From: Oceanirhabdus seepicola | Lineage (GTDB): Bacteria > Bacillota > Clostridia > Clostridiales > Clostridiaceae | Reading direction: 5' to 3' | Assembly (NCBI RefSeq): GCF_023684385.1 | Contig: NZ_JAGSOJ010000007.1 | Location: forward strand, 144,148-208,147 | DNA length: 64,000 bases | Shown here: piece after piece, positions 1-9,134 of the stretch | How positions within the stretch are numbered: the stretch's first letter is position 1 | How the letters are laid out: every line of letters starts with the position of its first letter | The notes under the pieces: model-generated | What the model was told of the DNA's origin: nothing | What the model saw: only the letters and a program-made list of their open reading frames with translations | The model's database searches: none | Position numbers and translations under genes: made by a program

Positions 1-61
1 TGACCCTAGAAGGATATATGAAAATCTTCAATCATATGAAAACGGTATAATAACACCGCCA

Positions 62-1102
62 ATGACAATTGTTGAGGTTAATAGAGTGTGTAATTATAAC
101 TGTCCTTGGTGTTATCTTGATAATATGATACAAGATGATGGGGTTTTATCCATTGAACAGATAGAACAGAGAATTGTTGAGCCGCTACTTAAGGCTGGGG
201 CAAACTACTGGGCAATAACAGGAGGAGAACCGTCAGTTACCCTTGATAGGACACTGAAGTTGATAACAAGTATAAAAGATAGAACTATTAGAGAATTTGG
301 GTATAGGCCATATATATTATTATTTACAAATGGGCATAAATTAAAAGAATATGCTGAATTATATAAAGAAGCTGGAGTCACAATAGTTCAGGTGAGTTTA
401 TCTTCTCCAGATGAAGAACAGGAAGTAGGTCTTAGACGTCCACCTGAAGGGATTAACTCATATAGAGAAGCAGTTCAGGGAATAAAGAAGTGTAAGGAGA
501 TTGGGTTAGAGGTAATTTTAAATTCAGTTATAACTTCTGATATTGGATATGGTTCAAATGTGGATTATATTCCAAAGATATATAAACTAGCGAAAGAGTT
601 GAAAATAAATACTCTTGATATAAACTTAGCATGTCCTTCAGGTCAGGCAAAGAAGAATAATATTGTGTTCTCAAAAGAAGAGTATTTTAAGATTAAAAAG
701 TATGTTCAATCTAATAACTTTGCAGAAGAAGATAGAATCCGTGAAGATTTACCGATAGATGATCTTGAAGAGCATCGTGAAATAAGATGTGGTGTAGGTA
801 TGCTTGAGTTTTATGTGGATTATAAGGGATATACATATCCATGTAATAACCTTATTCATAAAGAAATGTTATGTGCACCAAGGACAATATTAGAGGAGAA
901 TATCAAAGATATTTGGTTCACATCAGAAAAACTATCAGTTTTTAGAGAATATCAAGATAATAATATAAACGAAGAATGTGGTAGTTGCGAATATAGAGGA
1001 TTCTGCTTGGGTAGTTGCTTTGCTAGAGGGTGGCATCAATATGGAATGTTAAAAATGGATAAAAAGCCAGAGAATTGTTATAAGGATGTATATGCAAGAT
1101 AA
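62..1102 (+). CDS. Radical SAM / SPASM-domain peptide-modifying enzyme (RiPP maturase-like). The reading frame is also open from the window start, so the true start may lie upstream.
   Basis: The N-terminus carries the CxxxCxxC motif 'CNYNCPWC'. The C-terminus has Cys-rich SPASM-type motifs ('CGVGM..YPCNNL..', 'CGSCEYRGFCLGSC'). Frame 2 has no stop between nt 2 and 62. Confidence 0.8.
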   Translation: MTIVEVNRVCNYNCPWCYLDNMIQDDGVLSIEQIEQRIVEPLLKAGANYWAITGGEPSVTLDRTLKLITSIKDRTIREFGYRPYILLFTNGHKLKEYAELYKEAGVTIVQVSLSSPDEEQEVGLRRPPEGINSYREAVQGIKKCKEIGLEVILNSVITSDIGYGSNVDYIPKIYKLAKELKINTLDINLACPSGQAKKNNIVFSKEEYFKIKKYVQSNNFAEEDRIREDLPIDDLEEHREIRCGVGMLEFYVDYKGYTYPCNNLIHKEMLCAPRTILEENIKDIWFTSEKLSVFREYQDNNINEECGSCEYRGFCLGSCFARGWHQYGMLKMDKKPENCYKDVYAR

Positions 1103-1257
1103 TATCCAGCAATTTTTGAAAACGGTTTAAAGAACAACACTAAAACTTAAATCATAGCAGGAGAATAAATGCAAATAGTAATATCTTAGAGCTGCTGAGA
1201 GTAAGTTGAAGTGGTGTATGTTTAAATAAATATCTTAAATAATAGGGGGAAATTAAA

Positions 1258-1392
1258 ATGAGTTCATTGAAAGAAAAAGGGGCAAAGAAGAGAAAGCCTC
1301 TAATGAAAACTTTGAAAAATCAAAGTGATAAGAAATCAGTTGTATCTTGTAAAGCAGTAGGACCAGAGGAAGAGATTATAGTATGGCCATAA
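1258..1392 (+). CDS. Candidate 44-aa RiPP precursor peptide, MSSLKEKGAKKRKPLMKTLKNQSDKKSVVSCKAVGPEEEIIVWP. It is not in the ORF track because it is shorter than 60 aa.
   Basis: An intact ATG ORF has the RBS 'AATAGGGGGAAATT' 7 nt upstream. It sits between the rSAM/SPASM gene and the MFS exporter. It has a Lys-rich leader-like N-terminus and a C-terminal core with a single Cys and a K...W pair. A hairpin lies immediately downstream. Confidence 0.5.
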   Translation: MSSLKEKGAKKRKPLMKTLKNQSDKKSVVSCKAVGPEEEIIVWP

Positions 1393-1400
1393 CAATGATA

Positions 1401-1432
1401 AAGCTTCAGGAAATCCTGGAGCTTTTCATTTA
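1401..1432 (+). terminator. Hairpin plus T-rich tract after the precursor ORF, likely a partial terminator or attenuator ahead of the exporter
   Basis: 'AAGCTTCAGG-aaat-CCTGGAGCTT' is a 10-bp stem with one G-U pair, followed by 'TTCATTT'. Confidence 0.45.
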
Positions 1433-1488
1433 AAAAGATTTTAGTATTCAGAAAAATATCCATATATTTAGGCGATTGAGGTGTAATA

Positions 1489-2745
1489 ATGAATTTGTTT
1501 AAATCTGAAAAGAATACTTTTTTAAAGAATAAAAGATTTATGAATTTTTTGATAGGTTATGGTGTTTCTTCTTTAGGTGGTAGTATGGATAATATGATTT
1601 TTACTTTGCTAGCAATTGAACTTACTGGGTCACCAACATCAGTAGGAGTAATGCTAATGATATTATCGCTACCTAATTTATTATTTTCATTATTTGGAGG
1701 AACATTTGCTGATATGTTTGATAGAAAGAAAATTATGGTTTTTACGAACTATATAAGAGGTGGGTTAATAGGATTAATTTTAATATTATTCATTTTTAAT
1801 AAGCTGACTTTCTTTTTATTATGCGTAGTGTTATTTATTGTTGAGAGCTTATCTAGATTTAATGGACCTGCAATGGGGGCGACCATGCCAAGGTTGCTAA
1901 CAAAACAGGAGTTTTTTAAAGCTAGATCGTTTTATAGTGGAGTTATTAGAGGAATAGTGATGATTGGCCCTTCAATAAGTTCAGTTCTTGTAGCACTTAC
2001 AGGATATTGGGTGCCACTTACAGTTGACAGTTTAAGTTATTTATTTGCAGGGAAGATGGTTAGCATTACTGATTTGAGTGATGTTCAGGTGAAAAGTACT
2101 GAAAAGAAAGGTGTAAAGCAAGTAGTACATAATACAGTAGATGGTTTTAGGTATATAAAATCAAATAAATTCATGTTGAAATTAGTTGTAATAATGTTAT
2201 TTATGAACTTAATTCTTGGGCTTTTTGATGTTCCATTACCATTTATGATGAAACAGAATTTTAATTTGGATAAGACATATTATGCATACCTTAAATCAAT
2301 TTTTGCTGGTGCTGGTTTAGTAGCTACTATATTTCTTTCAAAATATGAGGTTAAGAAACCGGGTAAGACTATAATAATATTTATGTTTATAATGGGAGGA
2401 GCATTGATTTTATTTGGGTTATCAAAGAATTACTATCTAGCATGTATATTATCAGCAATATCAGCCTTTTTTAGAACATGTATTGCCATAACACTTTGGT
2501 CCTTCATAAGTATTATGGCTGAAGATAAATATAGAGGAAGAGTTTCAGCTACCATTGGAATGATTATTTCTTCTGTTGTTCCATTGTCGAATGGGTTATC
2601 AGGTGTATTTGTAGATAAGTTTCCCGCTGGTTTGATTTTTACATTTGGAGGGGTGTTTTTTATAATAATAAGTTTGATTTATTGTTTTGATTCATACGTA
2701 ATGAACTATCAGATATCAGATGAATCTAGCGCTGTAGGTGCTTAG
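1489..2745 (+). CDS. MFS transporter (putative exporter of the RiPP product)
   Basis: The 418-aa product has about 12 hydrophobic helices in an MFS-like arrangement and the motif 'GGTFADMFDRKK' in loop 2-3. Confidence 0.8.
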   Translation: MNLFKSEKNTFLKNKRFMNFLIGYGVSSLGGSMDNMIFTLLAIELTGSPTSVGVMLMILSLPNLLFSLFGGTFADMFDRKKIMVFTNYIRGGLIGLILILFIFNKLTFFLLCVVLFIVESLSRFNGPAMGATMPRLLTKQEFFKARSFYSGVIRGIVMIGPSISSVLVALTGYWVPLTVDSLSYLFAGKMVSITDLSDVQVKSTEKKGVKQVVHNTVDGFRYIKSNKFMLKLVVIMLFMNLILGLFDVPLPFMMKQNFNLDKTYYAYLKSIFAGAGLVATIFLSKYEVKKPGKTIIIFMFIMGGALILFGLSKNYYLACILSAISAFFRTCIAITLWSFISIMAEDKYRGRVSATIGMIISSVVPLSNGLSGVFVDKFPAGLIFTFGGVFFIIISLIYCFDSYVMNYQISDESSAVGA

Positions 2746-2775
2746 GTGGTATTATATAGGAAAGGAGGGGATTTT

Positions 2776-3576
2776 GTGAAAATTTTCATAAGTGCAGATA
2801 TTGAGGGAGTAACGGGGACAACTCATTGGAATGAGACTATTAAAGGAAAAGTAGAGAGTGAATTTTTTAGAGAACAGATGACAAGAGAAGTAAAGGCTGC
2901 ATGTGAAGCTGCTAATAAAGCTGGTGCAAAAGAAATATGGATTAAAGATGCTCACGGAACTGCAAGAAATATAGATTTTAGTCAGTTACCTAAAAATATA
3001 AAGATGGTTAGAGGTTGGGCAAGAGATCCATACTCTATGGTTCAAGGAATTGACGATTCATTTGATGCAGTTATGTTTATAGGATATCATTCAGCAGCGG
3101 GTAGTGATGGGAACCCGTTATCACATACTCTGAATCCCTCAAAGATATATGAGATGAGGATAAACGGGGAGAGAACATCAGAATTTATGCTTTACTCTTA
3201 TGCGTGTCAATATCATAGAGTTCCATCTGTTTTTCTAAGTGGGGATAAGAAGATGACTGAAGAAGCAAGGCGTATTAATAGTAATATTAATACAGTAGCT
3301 GTATTGGAGGGAGTAGGTAATTCTACAGTGAGTATTCATCCAGATGTAGCTGTTGATAGAATAGACAAGCAAGTTACAAGTGTCCTAAATGAAGATAGAA
3401 GTAAATTCAACATAGAACTTCCAAAGGAATTTAAACTAGAGATACAATATGTGAATCATTATGATGCATATACATATTCATTCTATCCAGGAGCGGAACT
3501 AGTAGATGAGAGAACAGTTAGATTTATCTCACAGGATTATTTTGATATAATTAGAGCAATTTTATTTATGAAATGA
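2776..3576 (+). CDS. M55 family D-aminopeptidase (DppA-like)
   Basis: The product begins 'VKIFISADIEGVTG', which matches the DppA N-terminal signature. A GTG start lies 5 nt after the RBS 'AAAGGAGGGG'. The ORF-track start at 2746 is probably too early. Confidence 0.75.
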   Translation: MKIFISADIEGVTGTTHWNETIKGKVESEFFREQMTREVKAACEAANKAGAKEIWIKDAHGTARNIDFSQLPKNIKMVRGWARDPYSMVQGIDDSFDAVMFIGYHSAAGSDGNPLSHTLNPSKIYEMRINGERTSEFMLYSYACQYHRVPSVFLSGDKKMTEEARRINSNINTVAVLEGVGNSTVSIHPDVAVDRIDKQVTSVLNEDRSKFNIELPKEFKLEIQYVNHYDAYTYSFYPGAELVDERTVRFISQDYFDIIRAILFMK

Positions 3577-3763
3577 TTCTAGTATGAAAATAATAACAAT
3601 TAAAATCATTTTCCAGATACATAAAGAATTTTCTATTAAGTATGAAACATAGATAAATTTATTAATCATTTTACGCATTAAATTATTTTCTTTTCTTTTG
3701 TATGTCACAAAATACAAACTATATAAATATTTTAATAGTGGAGAAAGATATAAGGAGATATTG

Positions 3764-4762
3764 ATGGGCTACCAGGTATATAAGTGTATTGATGCAGGAA
3801 CGGAATTCTGCCCCTGCCATCTGAGTGAGAATAATCAATGTATTTTGTGTTCTGCTTTGCAGGATAAAGATAAATGTGACTGCGAACACTGGAGTGGAGT
3901 ATGTATATATCAACGATTTATAGAAAATGGTAAAAAGGCAACAGAAACTAGAAAATACTATCAATGTGACATAGTAAAAAAAGATAAGATTGGAAAAGGA
4001 CTTCTAAAACTTATAATAAAGGTTCCAGAATACTTGAGTGACAGATTGACTGAGCCAGGTAGTTTTGTTTTTCTTAAAAACCCAAGTGATAAGGTTACAT
4101 TTGATGTGCCAATCGCAGTAATGGAAGTAAATAGGAAGAAATGTACTATAACTGTTGTGTTAAAAATACTAGGAGTTAAGACAAAGCGAATTGAACAACT
4201 TATGACAGGTGAAAAGATAACTGTGAAAGGACCATTCTGGAATGGAATATTAGGTTTGAGACATATTAAAAATCTTAAGGATAGTACTGTTTTGGTCATT
4301 GCAAGGGGCATAGGACAGGCTCCGATGATACCGCCATTGAAAGAATTATATAATAACAATAATAAAATTATTACAATAATAGACAAGGGAAAAGAAGGAG
4401 TAGAATTCATAAGACCTTACTTAGATAGGTTCTCCCATGTGAATATATATACATCAGTAATTGATAAAGGAATTGGCTCAAGAAAATTTGAAGATGTGTT
4501 CAAGAATATTGTTGTACACGATAAAGTGAGTTTGGTCCATTGTGATACAGGGGATTTTATTATAAAGAAAGTAATGAGATATATAAAGGAGATAGAAAAA
4601 GAAAAAGGATTGAATATAGATTTTTCTTGTTGTAACAATTTCAAGATGTGTTGTGGCGAAGGTATATGTGGATGCTGTACTAATAGGCGTGATAGCAACA
4701 TAAAAAGGATGTGCAAATATCAAGGAGATCCTAAGGATATCTTGGAGGAGTGTGAACATTAA
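3764..4762 (+). CDS. PyrK-like FAD/NAD(P)-binding iron-sulfur flavoprotein with an extra Cys-rich N-terminal domain
   Basis: The C-terminal [2Fe-2S] motif 'CCGEGICGCC' is typical of the dihydroorotate dehydrogenase electron-transfer subunit family. The N-terminus has 8 Cys in 50 aa ('CIDAGTEFCPCHLSENNQCILCSALQDKDKCDCEHWSGVC'). The ATG at 3764 follows the RBS 'AAGGAG'. Confidence 0.65.
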   Translation: MGYQVYKCIDAGTEFCPCHLSENNQCILCSALQDKDKCDCEHWSGVCIYQRFIENGKKATETRKYYQCDIVKKDKIGKGLLKLIIKVPEYLSDRLTEPGSFVFLKNPSDKVTFDVPIAVMEVNRKKCTITVVLKILGVKTKRIEQLMTGEKITVKGPFWNGILGLRHIKNLKDSTVLVIARGIGQAPMIPPLKELYNNNNKIITIIDKGKEGVEFIRPYLDRFSHVNIYTSVIDKGIGSRKFEDVFKNIVVHDKVSLVHCDTGDFIIKKVMRYIKEIEKEKGLNIDFSCCNNFKMCCGEGICGCCTNRRDSNIKRMCKYQGDPKDILEECEH

Positions 4763-6033
4763 TGAAAGTGATCATTATTGGAGGAGGTTGGGCAGGGGCC
4801 GCTGCTGCTCTGAGCGCCAGAAAACAAGGGGCAGAAGTTCATGTTTATGAGAAAACAGATCTGCTTCTTGGATTAGGTAATATTGGTGGAATTATAAGGA
4901 ATAATGGAAGATATACTGCAGCAGAAGAGCTGATTGCAATGGGATGTGGCGACCTTATAAATTTATGTGATGAGAATGCTGCTCATAAATCAGTAAACTT
5001 CCCAGGGCACCAGCATGCTACATTATATAACGTTAATAAGATTGAACCTGCAGTGAGAAATTACTTGATATCGAAGGGAATTAATCTTCATTTTGTTAAG
5101 AGAGTCAGTGGGGTTGAAGTAAAACAGAAGGAGATAAAAGGATTATATCTACATGATGGTACCTATGTAGAAGGTGATATATTTATTGAGACTACAGGTG
5201 GAACAGGGCCAATGGGAAATTGCATGAGATACGGAAATGGTTGTTCTATGTGTGTTTTAAGATGTCCCTCATATGGTCCAAGAGTAAGTATTACAGCAGC
5301 ATGTGGACTAGAAGATATAATGGGTGAGCGAGCTGATGGAGAATTTGGTGCCTTCAGTGGATCATGCAAATTAGCGAAGGATACACTATCTACTAAAATA
5401 CAAAAAGAACTTGAAGAGAAAGGTGTTGCTCTGTTAAAAATCCCAAAAGAGGATATAAACAAAGACAAGTTAAAGATAAAGGTATGTCAACAGTATGCAC
5501 TTGATGAATTTGCAGAGAATATAGTATTACTTGATACTGGTCATGCAAAGCTCATGACAAGTTACTATCCATTAGAGAAGCTTAGAAAAATTGAAGGATT
5601 GGAAAATGTCAAGTATATCGATCCTTACGGAGGCGGAAAAGGAAATTCAATAAGATATCTAAGTATCGCACGTAGAAAGAATGATATGAGAGTTATAGGA
5701 ATAAAGAATCTATTTGTGGGTGGAGAAAAAAGTGGCCTTTTTGTAGGTCACACAGAGGCCATATGCACTGGTACGCTAGCAGGATACAATGCTGTTAAGT
5801 ATGCTAAAGGTGAAAAAATGCTCATACTCCCAAGAAAGACTGCAATAGGTGATATAATATCTTACGCAAACTATAGAATGTTAAAGATGAAGGATCATAA
5901 AACTAGATACACCTTTGCTGGATCTGTTTATTTGAAGAGAATGGAGAAATTGAAACTTTACACTATAGATAAAGATGAGATTATTAAAAGAATAAAGGAC
6001 CTAGGTCTTGAGAATATTTTCAGTGAAAGATGA
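4762..6033 (+). CDS. FAD-dependent oxidoreductase, TrmFO/GidA-like fold
   Basis: The N-terminal dinucleotide-binding motif is 'VIIIGGGWAGAAAA'. The C-terminal 'GQ/GHTE..GYNAVKYAKGEKMLILPRKTAIGDI' resembles the TrmFO C-terminus. A TAATG overlap with the upstream gene suggests translational coupling. Confidence 0.6.
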   Translation: MKVIIIGGGWAGAAAALSARKQGAEVHVYEKTDLLLGLGNIGGIIRNNGRYTAAEELIAMGCGDLINLCDENAAHKSVNFPGHQHATLYNVNKIEPAVRNYLISKGINLHFVKRVSGVEVKQKEIKGLYLHDGTYVEGDIFIETTGGTGPMGNCMRYGNGCSMCVLRCPSYGPRVSITAACGLEDIMGERADGEFGAFSGSCKLAKDTLSTKIQKELEEKGVALLKIPKEDINKDKLKIKVCQQYALDEFAENIVLLDTGHAKLMTSYYPLEKLRKIEGLENVKYIDPYGGGKGNSIRYLSIARRKNDMRVIGIKNLFVGGEKSGLFVGHTEAICTGTLAGYNAVKYAKGEKMLILPRKTAIGDIISYANYRMLKMKDHKTRYTFAGSVYLKRMEKLKLYTIDKDEIIKRIKDLGLENIFSER

Positions 6034-6040
6034 GAAGTGA

Positions 6041-6160
6041 ATACAGAGTAAAAATCTGGTATCTTAGTGGTGGGATGTCAGATTTTTGTCGTTTAGAAAT
6101 TAGAATAGTCATAGTTACATATATGAGATTATGTTAACTAAATAATGTAAACAAAAACAT
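6041..6160 (+). repeat. Intergenic repeat copy A: terminator-like hairpin plus a conserved AT-rich module
   Basis: 'ATACAGAGTAAAAATCTGGTATC..GATGTCAGATTTTTG' is a 12-bp stem followed by a T-run. It is followed by 'TTACATATATGAGATTATGTTAACTAAATAATGTAAACAAAAACATT'. The same element recurs at 29758, 41201 and 59101. Confidence 0.8.
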
Positions 6161-6812
6161 TCAAACTGCAATAATAGTTAGAGCTTCTTTATAGATTGCT
6201 ACTTTAGCCAGTTTTCACCACTCTGTTAACTCAGTATTAAAGTCTTATTTTTGAATTATTATAACTCAATTCCAACATGAGATTTACATGTTGAGATAGG
6301 AATTGTTATTTGGGCCGACTGGGGTGAGTGTGACTTGGTTGGTTTGTTTTTCGTATGATAAAAACAATTTTTGGAATAAGTAGTTAAAACAGTTGAAAAA
6401 AAATTTTGGAAAAAGAGGAAAATGTTAATAAATGTAGAATATAATTAAATAAGTGGAATAAAATCAAAATTAAACTTTAATCACTCAATATGATAAAAGT
6501 AATAAATATTATCATATATAGCATAGGTTATAAGGTATACATATGACTTCGAGTATTTGCATTTATCAGAATTTTCGATATTATCTAAAGTTTGAATGAT
6601 ATAGTCTAAAGTTTATTTGCTTGCATTTGTTTTCAAGAGAATTTACCTTTCTTTTTGGGTTATTTATATATGTGGTGATATATTAATATTTCTACATTTT
6701 AATAATTCTACATTAAGTGGGGGAAATTTTTTTTGAAAGCATTTTAAAATATTTTTTTAGCGGTTGTAGTGTTCTGCAACTGACTATATTATCAAAAGGG
6801 GGAAATAAAGTA

Positions 6813-9134
6813 ATGAAAGGTAAATTACGCAAGGTTACTTCAGCTTTACTTGTTTCATTCATGTGCGCTAGCGCATTTACTGGGTGTGGTAATAGTGAAA
6901 CAAAAGAGACTGAAAAAGTAACAAACACACAAGGTGAGAAGGGCAACAAGGAAACACCTAAGACAGAAGCAGCAATTACGGGGGCAGATAATGTTTCTAT
7001 AAAGGAACTATCTGAGTTTGATCCACTTGAAGGTGTAACAGCAAAAGGTGCAGATGGCAAAGATGCAACTGCTAAAATTGAGGTTACTGGTGAAGTTGAT
7101 ACACTTAAAGAAGGTGAGTATGAATTAACTTATACATTAAAAGGTACTGACTTATCAGTTACTAGAGCTGTAACAGTTACAGGTATTGAGGCTGTTTTAG
7201 CAAATGGTACTTTCAACTATAAGTTTGCTACATCTGAAGTAAGGCATACTTTTTTTGCAGCTGCTGAAGACTACCTATTGCATAACCAATATGCGGGAAT
7301 ACCATTATTCGCAGATTCTGTATTTGCTCTTTATTCTGGTAGAATGCAGCTTGCAACAGAGGAATTTTTACCAGTCTTACAGTATGCTACAGAGTATTCA
7401 ACTATGGCTGCTGATGATAGCAAGGTATTGATGGAAGATGGGAAAAATGGTAATGCAGGCGAGTACACATATAGAACTGCTATTTCAGGTAATCCAAGTC
7501 AATGGAATCAATGGAAATATGATGATCAAACAACAGCTGGCATTATGGATGATTATCTTGGAACCTTGTTTTTATATGACTTTAATGAGGATAAGACAGG
7601 ATATGTTCTTGTTCCTTCCATGGCTTCTGAGGATCCAATACCTTTAGAAAGCCGTGAATTACCAAATGGTAAGGTAGTATCAAAAAAATGGCAACTTAAA
7701 ATTAAAGATGGTCTTAAGTGGAAGTTTAACGAAAAGACTGACACATCAATGATAACTGATGAAACTATCAATGCTGTTGATTTTTATGAGACTTATAAAC
7801 TTGCTTTGACAGAAAAATGGTTTAGAGCTACAAGTAGTGGATTTTCTGATGGACCACAAGCAGTTGTTAATGCTCAAGCGTTTGTTGATGGAACAGCTGA
7901 GTGGGATGATGTAGGTATTAAGTTTATTGACGATAATACTCTTGAATTTGAGTATGTTGATGAGCAATCAGAATGGAATGTTAAGTATTCATTATCTAGT
8001 TTCGTAATGACTCCAATTAACATTGAATTATATGAAGCTTTAGGCGAAAAATATGGTCTTGATGAAAACTCAATTGCATATCACGGTCCTTACTATGTTG
8101 ACTATTACGAAAGTGATAAAGTTTTAAGAATGAAGAAGAATGATGAATATCATCAAGCTGATAAATATTTCTACACAGGTAGGAATATAACTATTATCAA
8201 TGATGCGGAGATGCGTTTCCAAGAATTCGTAGCTGGTAAACTTGATGCAGTTACATTACCTGCAACACATTTTGAAGAGTATAAGAGCCATCCTGGTATA
8301 AAACGTCTTCCAGGAGAAACAACTTATAGAATGATGATTAACGGGACAGGATCAAAAGAGGGGCAACTTGCACAATTCCCAGATAGTGAATGGGATGCAG
8401 AACCTATTTTAGGAAATCAAGATTTTAAAATGGGGCTTTTCTATGCAATTGACAGAAAGAAACTTGCTGAGGAAGTTTTGAAGACTTCACAAACACAGAT
8501 GTATCTGTTCACTGATGCGTATTTAGTAGATGCTGAGACAGGTATACTTTTTAGGAATTGTCCACAAGGTATGTCAGTAGGCGCTGACCTTTCTCCTTCA
8601 ACTAATGGTTATAACTTAGATGCTTCAAGAGCTTATTTTGATAAAGCACTTGATACTCTAGTTGGCGAAGGCGTTTATAAGAATGGCGATGAGATTACAT
8701 TTGAGTTTAATTATTTCAGTGGAAGTGAAAATCAAGCTTTAATGGGTACTTACATTAAAGATGCTGTTGAAGAAGCGTTCCAGAGCGAGAAACACAATAT
8801 CAAAGTAAAAGTAGAGCCTATGCCAAAAGATTTCCCAGGAATCTACTATGATCACATGATGATTGGTGAGTTTGACACTTCAATTGGTGGAATCGGTGGT
8901 AATACTCTAGATGCAGCATCATTCCTAGATACTTACACTTCAGACAATAGATCAGGATTTACTCTAAACTGGGGTATTGATACTACTATACCAGAGATTG
9001 CTGTTTCGTATAAGAATGACGAAGGTAAGTTGGTTAAAGAGTTATGGTCATTTGACGCTATTTATTCAGTATTAAACGGTGAAATCGAAATAGTAGATGG
9101 TGCAGAAGTACCAGAGGAAGAAGCAGCAGAATAA
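6813..9134 (+). CDS. Large ABC transporter substrate-binding lipoprotein (peptide/oligopeptide family 5-like, 774 aa)
   Basis: The signal peptide has the lipobox 'AFTGC'. The RBS is 'AAAGGGGGAAATAAAG' ahead of the ATG at 6813. It heads a five-gene ABC operon. Confidence 0.75.
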   Translation: MKGKLRKVTSALLVSFMCASAFTGCGNSETKETEKVTNTQGEKGNKETPKTEAAITGADNVSIKELSEFDPLEGVTAKGADGKDATAKIEVTGEVDTLKEGEYELTYTLKGTDLSVTRAVTVTGIEAVLANGTFNYKFATSEVRHTFFAAAEDYLLHNQYAGIPLFADSVFALYSGRMQLATEEFLPVLQYATEYSTMAADDSKVLMEDGKNGNAGEYTYRTAISGNPSQWNQWKYDDQTTAGIMDDYLGTLFLYDFNEDKTGYVLVPSMASEDPIPLESRELPNGKVVSKKWQLKIKDGLKWKFNEKTDTSMITDETINAVDFYETYKLALTEKWFRATSSGFSDGPQAVVNAQAFVDGTAEWDDVGIKFIDDNTLEFEYVDEQSEWNVKYSLSSFVMTPINIELYEALGEKYGLDENSIAYHGPYYVDYYESDKVLRMKKNDEYHQADKYFYTGRNITIINDAEMRFQEFVAGKLDAVTLPATHFEEYKSHPGIKRLPGETTYRMMINGTGSKEGQLAQFPDSEWDAEPILGNQDFKMGLFYAIDRKKLAEEVLKTSQTQMYLFTDAYLVDAETGILFRNCPQGMSVGADLSPSTNGYNLDASRAYFDKALDTLVGEGVYKNGDEITFEFNYFSGSENQALMGTYIKDAVEEAFQSEKHNIKVKVEPMPKDFPGIYYDHMMIGEFDTSIGGIGGNTLDAASFLDTYTSDNRSGFTLNWGIDTTIPEIAVSYKNDEGKLVKELWSFDAIYSVLNGEIEIVDGAEVPEEEAAE

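Follow-up and report, generated by a model that had tools for sequence, protein, structure and literature searches.

A probable gene cluster for a radical-SAM-modified peptide, with twin SPASM enzymes and a short putative precursor, in Oceanirhabdus seepicola

The 64,000-nucleotide stretch of the Oceanirhabdus seepicola genome considered here (hereinafter, the window; contig NZ_JAGSOJ010000007.1 of assembly GCF_023684385.1, forward-strand positions 144,148 to 208,147) opens with four co-directional genes, confirmed from the list of open reading frames (ORFs) together with the sequence. These are the 3' part of a gene for a radical S-adenosylmethionine (radical-SAM)/SPASM enzyme, a small ORF coding for a 44-residue peptide, a gene for a major facilitator superfamily (MFS) transporter, and a gene for an M55 D-aminopeptidase (Table 1). 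The window probably holds the downstream half of a small biosynthetic cluster for a peptide made by ribosomes and modified after translation (RiPP), altered by radical-SAM enzymes. An earlier interpretation made from the letters of the DNA alone (the sequence-only reading) had arrived at the same core idea, with the small ORF as the precursor gene. The core is borne out by the conservation of the ORF and by maturases equipped with a RiPP recognition element (RRE), whereas the streptide-type chemistry, the involvement of the D-aminopeptidase, some of the gene boundaries and the unannotated status of the ORF had to be given up; the peptide is present at NCBI as the hypothetical protein WP_276576115.1.

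The radical-SAM gene, designated here rSAM2, is cut by the edge of the window. Since its frame stays open back to base 2 and a 451-residue protein of O. seepicola (P0001) is 100% identical to its product, the ATG at position 62, formerly taken as the start of a gene spanning 62–1102, represents the internal Met106; residues 1–85 lie outside the window. The assignment of the domains stands: a radical-SAM domain (PF04055, E 1e-23) is followed by a SPASM domain (PF13186, E 2.5e-5; TIGR04085, E 2.3e-10). The radical-SAM motif CNYNCPWC (window positions 89–112, residues 115–122 of P0001) is of the CxxxCxxC type, found in 28/28 family members, all of which also possess the complete seven-cysteine SPASM motif (CX9-15GX4C ... 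CX2CX5CX3C ... C) with a first spacing of 12–17 residues. In the related loci, rSAM2 (~450 residues) is invariably accompanied by a tandem paralogue, rSAM1 (~435–441 residues), the two being 42% identical to each other. The O. seepicola orthologue of rSAM1 (P0188) resides on the same 252-kb contig as P0001; from this and from the presence of the gene pair in all related loci, we infer that rSAM1 directly precedes rSAM2 in this organism, outside the window. The single maturase initially envisaged thus turned out to be a fragment, and its paralogous partner had been missed.

Judging by its predicted structure, rSAM2 is a three-domain RRE/radical-SAM/SPASM protein of the RiPP-maturase type. The model of its N-terminal domain folds as an RRE, and its matches in the fold comparison, with TbtB, PbtF, SuiB, LynD and PqqD further down the list, are all RiPP recognition elements. 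It was the fold comparison alone that revealed the RRE: at the sequence level, neither Pfam nor PDB gave a PqqD/RRE match for this domain on its own. Its weak 'DpyY' similarity to proteins of the BtrH_N type (E 0.36) was put down to chance. The model of the full-length protein (predicted local distance difference test score, pLDDT, 68) has its best structural matches in the RiPP maturases SkfB, CteB and TigE. A family-wide profile can be aligned to TigE beginning with the RRE of the latter (E 3.6e-6), and rSAM1 matches TIGR03974, the SCIFF-maturase model, over the whole length including the RRE (E 3e-13). At the same time, no model of the NCBIfam scan reaches its cut-off for rSAM1 or rSAM2, and none matches the peptide.

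A rival idea is that the enzymes belong to SPASM proteins operating outside RiPP biosynthesis (AhbD, NirJ, anSME), with the small ORF coding for a micro-protein that is conserved without being related to them. With the truncated sequence as the query, proteins annotated as haem b synthases come closest beyond the family (25% identity), and AhbD and NirJ2 are among the top NCBIfam matches (~74 bits). These matches, however, stay far below the cut-off of 500 bits and are limited to the radical-SAM/SPASM core, as are the AhbD-like database matches at 25% identity, which span the catalytic core only. The RRE fold at the N-terminus of the family has no counterpart in AhbD and anSME, the peptide lacks the sulfatase motif C/S-x-P/A-x-R, and haem-pathway genes are absent from every locus. 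With an RRE and a maturase architecture, the enzyme is not of the anSME or AhbD type; the sequence-only reading thus withstands its own condition that a grouping with sulfatase-maturating or other non-RiPP SPASM enzymes would refute it, and a non-RiPP role is extremely improbable.

A small in-register ORF is present directly after rSAM2 in every locus with sequence downstream of this gene. Eight distinct variants are known, originating from Oceanirhabdus spp., Clostridium guangxiense, a metagenome-assembled genome (MAG) of Tissierellaceae and metagenomes (Table 1); the translation of the window ORF is exactly that given earlier. Ten columns of their alignment are invariant, namely M16, Q22, S23, K25, S27, V28, V29, S30, C31 and K32. 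Of the DNA columns that vary over the 17 conserved codons (1303–1353), 5 fall on the first codon position, 4 on the second and 15 on the third, and this third-position bias indicates selection on the protein. The ORF at 1258–1392 is, therefore, real, conserved and coding. Its linkage to the enzyme is strict: a degenerate DNA pattern for QSxK[KM]SVVSCK was encountered in two places among 241 million metagenome records, both directly downstream of an rSAM2 homologue, so that the eight variants and the reverse motif search agree that the ORF is conserved beside every homologous radical-SAM gene open to inspection; the other refuting condition of the sequence-only reading, a lack of such conservation, is thereby passed as well.

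Residues 1–15 of the window peptide constitute a Lys-rich N-terminal extension confined to the Oceanirhabdus clade and preceded by its own Shine–Dalgarno sequence, a strong one, as had been noted (Table 1). The Met codon at 1303 serves as the start codon in the other clades, and in four non-Oceanirhabdus clades a strong Shine–Dalgarno sequence directly precedes the conserved Met. The position of the ORF relative to the enzyme gene varies as well: it overlaps or abuts the stop codon of the radical-SAM gene in four other loci, L003–L005 among them, and starts ~170 nucleotides past it in L002, and in O. seepicola the distance is 155 nucleotides, not the tight spacing claimed before. In L003 (9350–9441), the ORF of rSAM2 runs ~20 residues longer (…MEGGEIDGSNKKAKQENVSCIL) and so covers, in a different frame, all of the start of the peptide ORF; the Shine–Dalgarno sequence of the L003 peptide, GGAGGGAGG, sits within this extended tail.

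Table 1. Features of the O. seepicola locus (positions in the window) and variants of the putative precursor peptide from related loci
Feature	Position	Strand	Sequence or remark	Basis
rSAM2, 3' part	2..1102	+	residues 86–451 of the 451-residue protein (predicted RRE / radical-SAM / SPASM)	identity to P0001, Pfam
Shine–Dalgarno sequence of the peptide gene	1245..1250	+	GGGGGA, 7 nucleotides before the ATG at 1258	sequence reading; G-run kept in L001, L007
Putative precursor peptide, 44 residues	1258..1392	+	MSSLKEKGAKKRKPL-MKTLKNQSDKKSVVSCK-AVGPEEEIIVWP	ORF call, eight in-register variants
Invariant block, predicted modification site	1321..1353	+	Q-S-x-K-x-S-V-V-S-C-K; Cys codon 1348–1350	alignment
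Stem-loop	1394..1430	+	starts 2 nucleotides past the peptide stop codon	free-energy fold, conservation
MFS_3 / DHA3-type transporter, 418 residues	1489..2745	+	putative product exporter	Pfam
M55 (DppA-like) D-aminopeptidase	2776..3576	+	outside the conserved cluster	Pfam PF04951, E 1.8e-89
Peptide variant, L001			...MKTLKKQSNKKSVVSCKAVGPHNEPGVWP	alignment
Peptide variant, L007			...MKTIRNQSDKKSVVSCKSLGPGQDWPTIPD	alignment
Peptide variant, L026			...MKTLRNQSDKKSVVSCKSLGPGEDWPTLPY	alignment
Peptide variant, L002/L009 (Clostridium guangxiense)			MKRIRKQSKKMSVVSCKVITGEEITISPKVNKN	alignment
Peptide variant, L003			MVVIKKQSKKMSVVSCKCGPIGD	alignment
Peptide variant, L004/L025			(M)KVIKKQSKKKSVVSCKVGPNL	alignment
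Peptide variant, L005/L010 (Tissierellaceae MAG)			MKVIKKQSKKKSVVSCKIIGIC	alignment

The hairpin downstream of the ORF has a free energy of -19.3 kcal/mol (z = -5.6), and 0 of 200 shuffled sequences fold as well; both arms are kept in L001 and L007, and analogous hairpins follow the peptide ORF, as seen by eye, in L005 and L003. The hairpin of the formerly proposed attenuator does exist, but a consensus terminator scan did not call it, owing to the weak U-tract UUUUCAUUU; probably, it is a partial terminator or an RNA-stabilising element. The Rfam scan of positions 1–8000, with E values up to 1, returned nothing, hence the hairpin and the spacer in front of the peptide gene (1103–1257) do not represent a known riboswitch or leader. 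In the alignment of the window with L001 and L007, the spacer displays the conserved blocks GTTTAA.GA.CAACACT, TTAGAGCTG, TTAAGTG and TCTTTAAATA.AT, and a weak sigma-70-like match, TTGTTA-17-GATAAT, is located at 1075–1103. The peptide gene may have a promoter or a regulatory site of its own.

Certain efflux pumps of the Mef/Tet(V) kind are controlled by leader peptides, and the small ORF could be viewed as coding for one of these, unconnected with the radical-SAM enzymes: read-through of the hairpin and, hence, the expression of a Mef/Tet(V)-like MFS efflux pump would be governed by ribosomes stalling on the ORF. The stable hairpin 2 nucleotides after the stop codon and ~60 nucleotides before the MFS start, the weak similarity of the transporter to the Mef(A) and Tet(V) pumps (68–76 bits) and the Pro-stop end of the window peptide would fit such a mechanism. 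Across the loci, however, the ORF goes with the radical-SAM gene and not with the MFS gene: the gene next to the ORF is GNAT-like, and not MFS, in 4/8 loci, several clades have the ORF overlapping or abutting the end of rSAM2, and in the clade of L006 and L011 it precedes the radical-SAM gene with no MFS gene beside it. Moreover, it is the internal 11-residue block that is conserved and not the C-terminal Pro-stop, and the motif search found the peptide only next to rSAM2. A purely regulatory role of the peptide is, on balance, highly improbable, and the interpretation as a RiPP precursor is preferred.

Enzymes with identities as low as 30–39% also have tiny adjoining ORFs with a related motif. 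The peptide of L012, MKTIKKQSSTKGEYCCH, overlaps the stop codon of its radical-SAM gene and has the N-terminal MKTIKKQS in common with the window peptide, while its C-terminal half is different, which suggests that the N-terminal segment is the recognition (leader) element. The peptide of L021, L022 and L027 reads MKCVEKRKPAEPYGTEYSCMMMVK, and a peptide containing ...SVEFSCMYLC[VF]DE... is encoded directly upstream of the enzyme in L006 and L011 (Anaerobacterium chartisolvens). An 81-residue ORF of L028 (5419–5664) begins with MKIQTIRENSEPFGTEYSCMM and contains ...EPFGTEYSCMM...; its start shares EP[F/Y]GTEYSCMM with the 24-residue peptides of L021 and L027, implying either a long C-terminal extension of the precursor or a differing stop codon. 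The motif common to the distant and the close peptides is [V/Y/F]-[S/C]-C. Given this common denominator, the invariant Cys with the preceding Ser is the likeliest candidate for the reaction site.

By its sequence features, i.e., the CxxxCxxC motif, the seven-cysteine SPASM domain, the predicted fused RRE and the short precursor ORF adjoining the maturase, the cluster qualifies as a genuine member of the RRE-dependent radical-SAM/SPASM RiPP systems, and the product of 1258–1392 is most likely the substrate peptide of the two neighbouring radical-SAM enzymes. Under this interpretation, rSAM1 and rSAM2, each composed of an N-terminal RRE, the barrel of the radical-SAM domain and a SPASM domain carrying two auxiliary Fe-S clusters, would bind by their RREs the short basic N-terminus of the peptide, M-K-x-[I/L]-[K/R]-x-Q-S, and modify the invariant S-V-V-S-C-K block by 5'-deoxyadenosyl radical chemistry. 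The second enzyme may add a further modification or act cooperatively, like TrnC/TrnD for thuricin CD. The product would leave the cell via the MFS_3 transporter, and the hairpin after the ORF probably sets the abundance of the peptide message apart from that of the transporter message. The analysis demonstrates the domain architecture, the conserved and coding nature of the ORF, its strict linkage to the enzymes and the conserved set of genes, whereas the substrate relationship, the division into leader and core and the export by the MFS protein are inferred.

Among the systems described to date, the thioether maturases (SCIFF/CteB, AlbA–subtilosin, SkfB, PapB, TrnC/TrnD) offer the closest parallel in three-domain architecture, SkfB and CteB being the best full-length structural matches; a further likeness is the short precursor with a Cys that is invariant in the cluster under study (8/8 variants, with the [S/C]-C pair in all distant-clade peptides). 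Thuricin CD, too, has two tandem radical-SAM genes (PMC12093266). If the product is a RiPP, our guess as to the key modification is a thioether that links the one invariant Cys with a residue close by, though its chances seem to be somewhat short of even. It is favoured since no residue other than Cys is kept in all clades, since the best structural matches are thioether-forming enzymes and since rSAM1 aligns throughout its length with the SCIFF-maturase model. The likeness to the thioether systems is not complete: there is no hairpin-type donor/acceptor pattern, one peptide is present for two enzymes and is encoded downstream of them, the exporter is an MFS protein rather than an ABC transporter or a peptidase, and the precursors are much shorter (22–45 residues, with ~10 residues ahead of the invariant block).

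Several observations weigh against the RiPP interpretation or the thioether variant of it. The cluster lacks a conserved leader protease. In the peptide, conservation extends over the N-terminal two thirds and variation is found in the tail at the C-terminus, which is unusual for a leader followed by a core and makes the leader/core boundary uncertain. A precursor with one conserved Cys, and not several, is unlike typical sactipeptides and ranthipeptides, and the curated NCBIfam models of thioether maturases (SCIFF, AlbA, SkfB, PapB, StsB, CefB) give only 44–70 bits vs. cut-offs of 300–850. The SPASM part of the full-length rSAM2 model is of low confidence (pLDDT <50). An eighth cysteine in the SPASM region, present in 25/28 family members, could fully ligate auxiliary cluster I; in CteB, it is an open site on this cluster that binds the substrate Cys (PMC10878394). 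Finally, the 155 nucleotides between rSAM2 and the peptide gene leave room for a promoter of the latter, although this distance is still compatible with a RiPP cluster.

It is conceivable, but rather doubtful, that the SVVSCK cluster along with its relatives (the GEYCC, GTEYSCMM and SVEFSCMYLC peptides) constitutes a new RiPP class, in which an unusually short recognition segment of ~8–10 residues (MKxIKKQS) would be enough for RRE binding and twin enzymes would introduce a so far undescribed modification on [V/Y/F]-[S/C]-C. One possibility within this scenario is a short-range crosslink in which the Ser-Cys pair takes part, or a Cys-derived heterocycle, in place of a standard sactionine or ranthionine. 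New peptide chemistry and antibiotics have come time and again from radical-SAM RiPPs, e.g., darobactin, streptide and the cyclopropylglycines; on the other hand, orphan radical-SAM RiPP clusters are common finds of genome mining, and an ordinary thioether, if it is formed here, would be an incremental addition to the sactipeptide/ranthipeptide landscape.

Membership in the cyclopropylglycine synthases was considered as well, since the closest solved structure by sequence is TigE (PDB 8VPO; TIGSVS cluster), with an identity of only ~15%. TigE acts as a methyl-cyclopropylglycine synthase, and its cluster, too, comprises two radical-SAM genes together with a transporter (PMC10878394). In TvgB and TigE, the motif GYW is strictly conserved, its Tyr ligating auxiliary cluster I (PMC10878394), whereas it occurs in 0/28 members of the present family, which have G-Y-T, G-N-T, G-F-A and similar triplets instead. 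In addition, each peptide contains a single copy of SVVSCK vs. 3–5 tandem repeats of a Val/Ile-containing motif in the precursors of TvgB/TigE. With GYW absent and the precursor motif unrepeated, this membership was rejected.

The streptide-type chemistry advanced in the sequence-only reading implies a Lys–Trp carbon–carbon crosslink, possibly along with epimerised residues processed by the adjacent M55 D-aminopeptidase. The window peptide does have Lys residues and one Trp, a W-P pair recurs in all four Oceanirhabdus-like tails, the top NCBIfam model for the truncated enzyme is the Trp–Lys crosslinking maturase WgkB (78 bits vs. a cut-off of 650), and the epimerase EpeE is found among the Foldseek matches (rank 12). 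Still, Trp is confined to these variable tails, at a varying distance from the invariant block, and is missing from 4/8 variants and from all distant-clade peptides, whose enzymes are nevertheless conserved; a Lys–Trp crosslink, therefore, cannot be the conserved chemistry of the family. For the full-length protein, WgkB is not the top match, and no streptide-family model is among the NCBIfam matches of rSAM1 or rSAM2. The cluster differs from streptide (StrA/StrB–SuiB/StrC) and related streptococcal radical-SAM RiPPs (WgkB and others) in the lack of a conserved Trp, the low WgkB scores (72–78 bits vs. 650), the gene order and the presence of two maturases. Together with the distribution of the M55 gene described below, this renders the crosslink highly unlikely.

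Another group of systems employing very short precursors comprises pyrroloquinoline quinone (PQQ; PqqA/PqqD/PqqE) and mycofactocin (MftA/B/C). In common with these, the cluster has precursors of 17–24 residues in most clades, presumptive RRE-mediated recognition, a SPASM radical-SAM enzyme and a core without a dedicated protease. Hence, the peptide might be a sacrificial scaffold for a small molecule or a cofactor, as PqqA is for PQQ and MftA for mycofactocin: SVVSCK would be modified, unlinked proteases would excise the product, and an EntS-like MFS protein would export it. Apart from the size of the precursor and the lack of a conserved protease, this scenario draws on the transporter, whose family (MFS_3/EntS-like) is typical of small-molecule export, on the appearance of PqqE and MftC among the generic NCBIfam matches and on the GNAT-like and NIF3-like genes accompanying the cluster in other clades. 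The scores of PqqE and MftC (58–66 bits vs. cut-offs of 265–381), however, are no better than those of many SPASM families, all of them far under their cut-offs. Neither the Glu/Tyr nor the C-terminal Val-Tyr motif is found in the peptides, and the RRE is fused rather than separate. No cofactor-using redox enzyme is conserved nearby, while the exporter, the variable accessory genes and the sparse, patchy distribution look like those of a secreted secondary metabolite and not of a cofactor pathway. The scaffold scenario is, consequently, regarded as unlikely, if less so than the crosslink or the regulatory leader peptide, and a RiPP as the final product remains the preferred interpretation.

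The conserved core of the cluster, established by tblastn across the loci, consists of rSAM1, rSAM2, the peptide gene, an optional double-GNAT-like gene (~300 residues, absent in Oceanirhabdus) and the MFS_3 transporter gene; in two clades, the core is followed by a NIF3-like gene. The transporter gene was recognised already in the sequence-only reading, and its product matches Pfam MFS_1 (E 1e-25) and MFS_3 (E 2.3e-18) as well as TIGR00900, the last with 164 bits, which is under the cut-off. Its homologues are located downstream of the peptide gene in L001, L007, L002/L009, L003, L010 and, weakly, in L011.

The M55 gene, by contrast with this core, is restricted to the O. seepicola window and to L001 (Oceanirhabdus sp. 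W0125-5), being absent from all other loci. Even in W0125-5 it is set apart, with an opposite-strand acetyltransferase gene and a gene for a 386-residue protein lying between it and the MFS gene. In L007 (a Clostridiaceae MAG whose rSAM2 is 87–90% identical), the MFS gene is directly followed by homologues of the window genes 3698–4762 and 4762–6033, with no M55 gene between them. The M55 D-aminopeptidase is, therefore, no component of the cluster but a neighbour peculiar to the lineage, placed at a variable junction, and its proposed connection with epimerisation is not supported. The identity of the enzyme itself is secure, but its start is most likely the GTG at 2776 instead of position 2746, because a Shine–Dalgarno sequence, AGGAGGGG, precedes this codon and the Pfam match starts at residue 12 of the long ORF.

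Relative to L007, the M55 gene has been inserted or deleted: where the window (2746–3700) has it between the MFS gene and a PRK05802-like gene, L007 (7997–8315) has ~320 nucleotides between the same two genes. Just past the M55 gene of W0125-5, a large serine recombinase and a SIR2/TIR-domain protein are encoded (L001 14108–17356), which fits a variable, mobile or defence-island junction downstream of the cluster. In the window, region 3698–6033 codes for a sulfide/dihydroorotate-dehydrogenase-like FAD/NAD-binding protein (NF004470, 394 bits, above cut-off) and then for a GIDA/TrmFO-like FAD oxidoreductase. The two genes adjoin directly, with the last base of the TGA of the former (4760–4762) being shared with the ATG of the latter (4762). 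The pair, present also in L007, is probably an unrelated two-gene redox operon.

The family is rare. Among 5.8 billion proteins, there are six 90%-identity clusters more than 48% identical to rSAM2, and ~20 enzyme clusters overall; when 1.8 billion cluster representatives were searched exhaustively with a profile, 18 matches fell below E 1e-30, followed by a gap in the scores. The search for related loci used a 6-sequence alignment. Full-text literature searches by peptide motif, accession number and genus yielded nothing relevant; no curated family covers the enzymes or the peptide, and the cluster is apparently undescribed. The interest of the cluster lies in the lack of a curated model for either the enzyme or the precursor, in its twin maturases and in precursors that are among the shortest for RRE-dependent systems. 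Since the substrate motif and the enzyme pair are defined and cultured carriers are available (O. seepicola and Clostridium guangxiense WZ_1), the chemistry is testable by co-expression.

The surroundings of the enzyme–peptide pair differ in the distant clades. Three genes flank the GTEYSCMM clade (L021 3689–4876 and 6530–9252, and likewise L027): they code for a 395-residue FemAB-like Acetyltransf_6 protein with a faint PqqD/RRE match, for an oligopeptide transporter of the OPT family, which is encoded by the other strand, and for a second, small radical-SAM protein of 295 residues. This suggests another set of tailoring and transport functions around the same pair. In the SVEFSCMYLC clade (L006 7392–13371; L011 542–2017 and 3938–6328), the peptide is encoded upstream of a single radical-SAM gene. 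Its neighbours in L006 are genes for a conserved protein of 312–366 residues, an acyl-carrier-protein-like gene, genes for two TldD/PmbA-type proteases and a BtrH_N/C39-like gene; those in L011 code for an MFS protein and for ABC-2-type permeases.

Peculiarities of single loci were documented as well. In Clostridium sp. DMHC 10, the rSAM2 orthologue (P0037) is annotated as a hypothetical protein of 251 residues and rSAM1 (P0189) is full length, so this copy of the cluster may be frameshifted or decaying. Upstream of rSAM1 in L003 (4955–6573), a divergent gene encodes an HTH_3 and TPR protein of 424–438 residues resembling RRNPP/Rgg-type regulators and is followed by an ORF of 68–87 residues, a hint at peptide-quorum-sensing control in this locus alone. 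An insertion of two ORFs (93 and 262 residues, IS3-type-transposase-like by eye) separates the peptide gene from the GNAT-like gene in the Tissierellaceae MAG (L010 3031–4142) and is missing from the otherwise near-identical metagenome locus L005.

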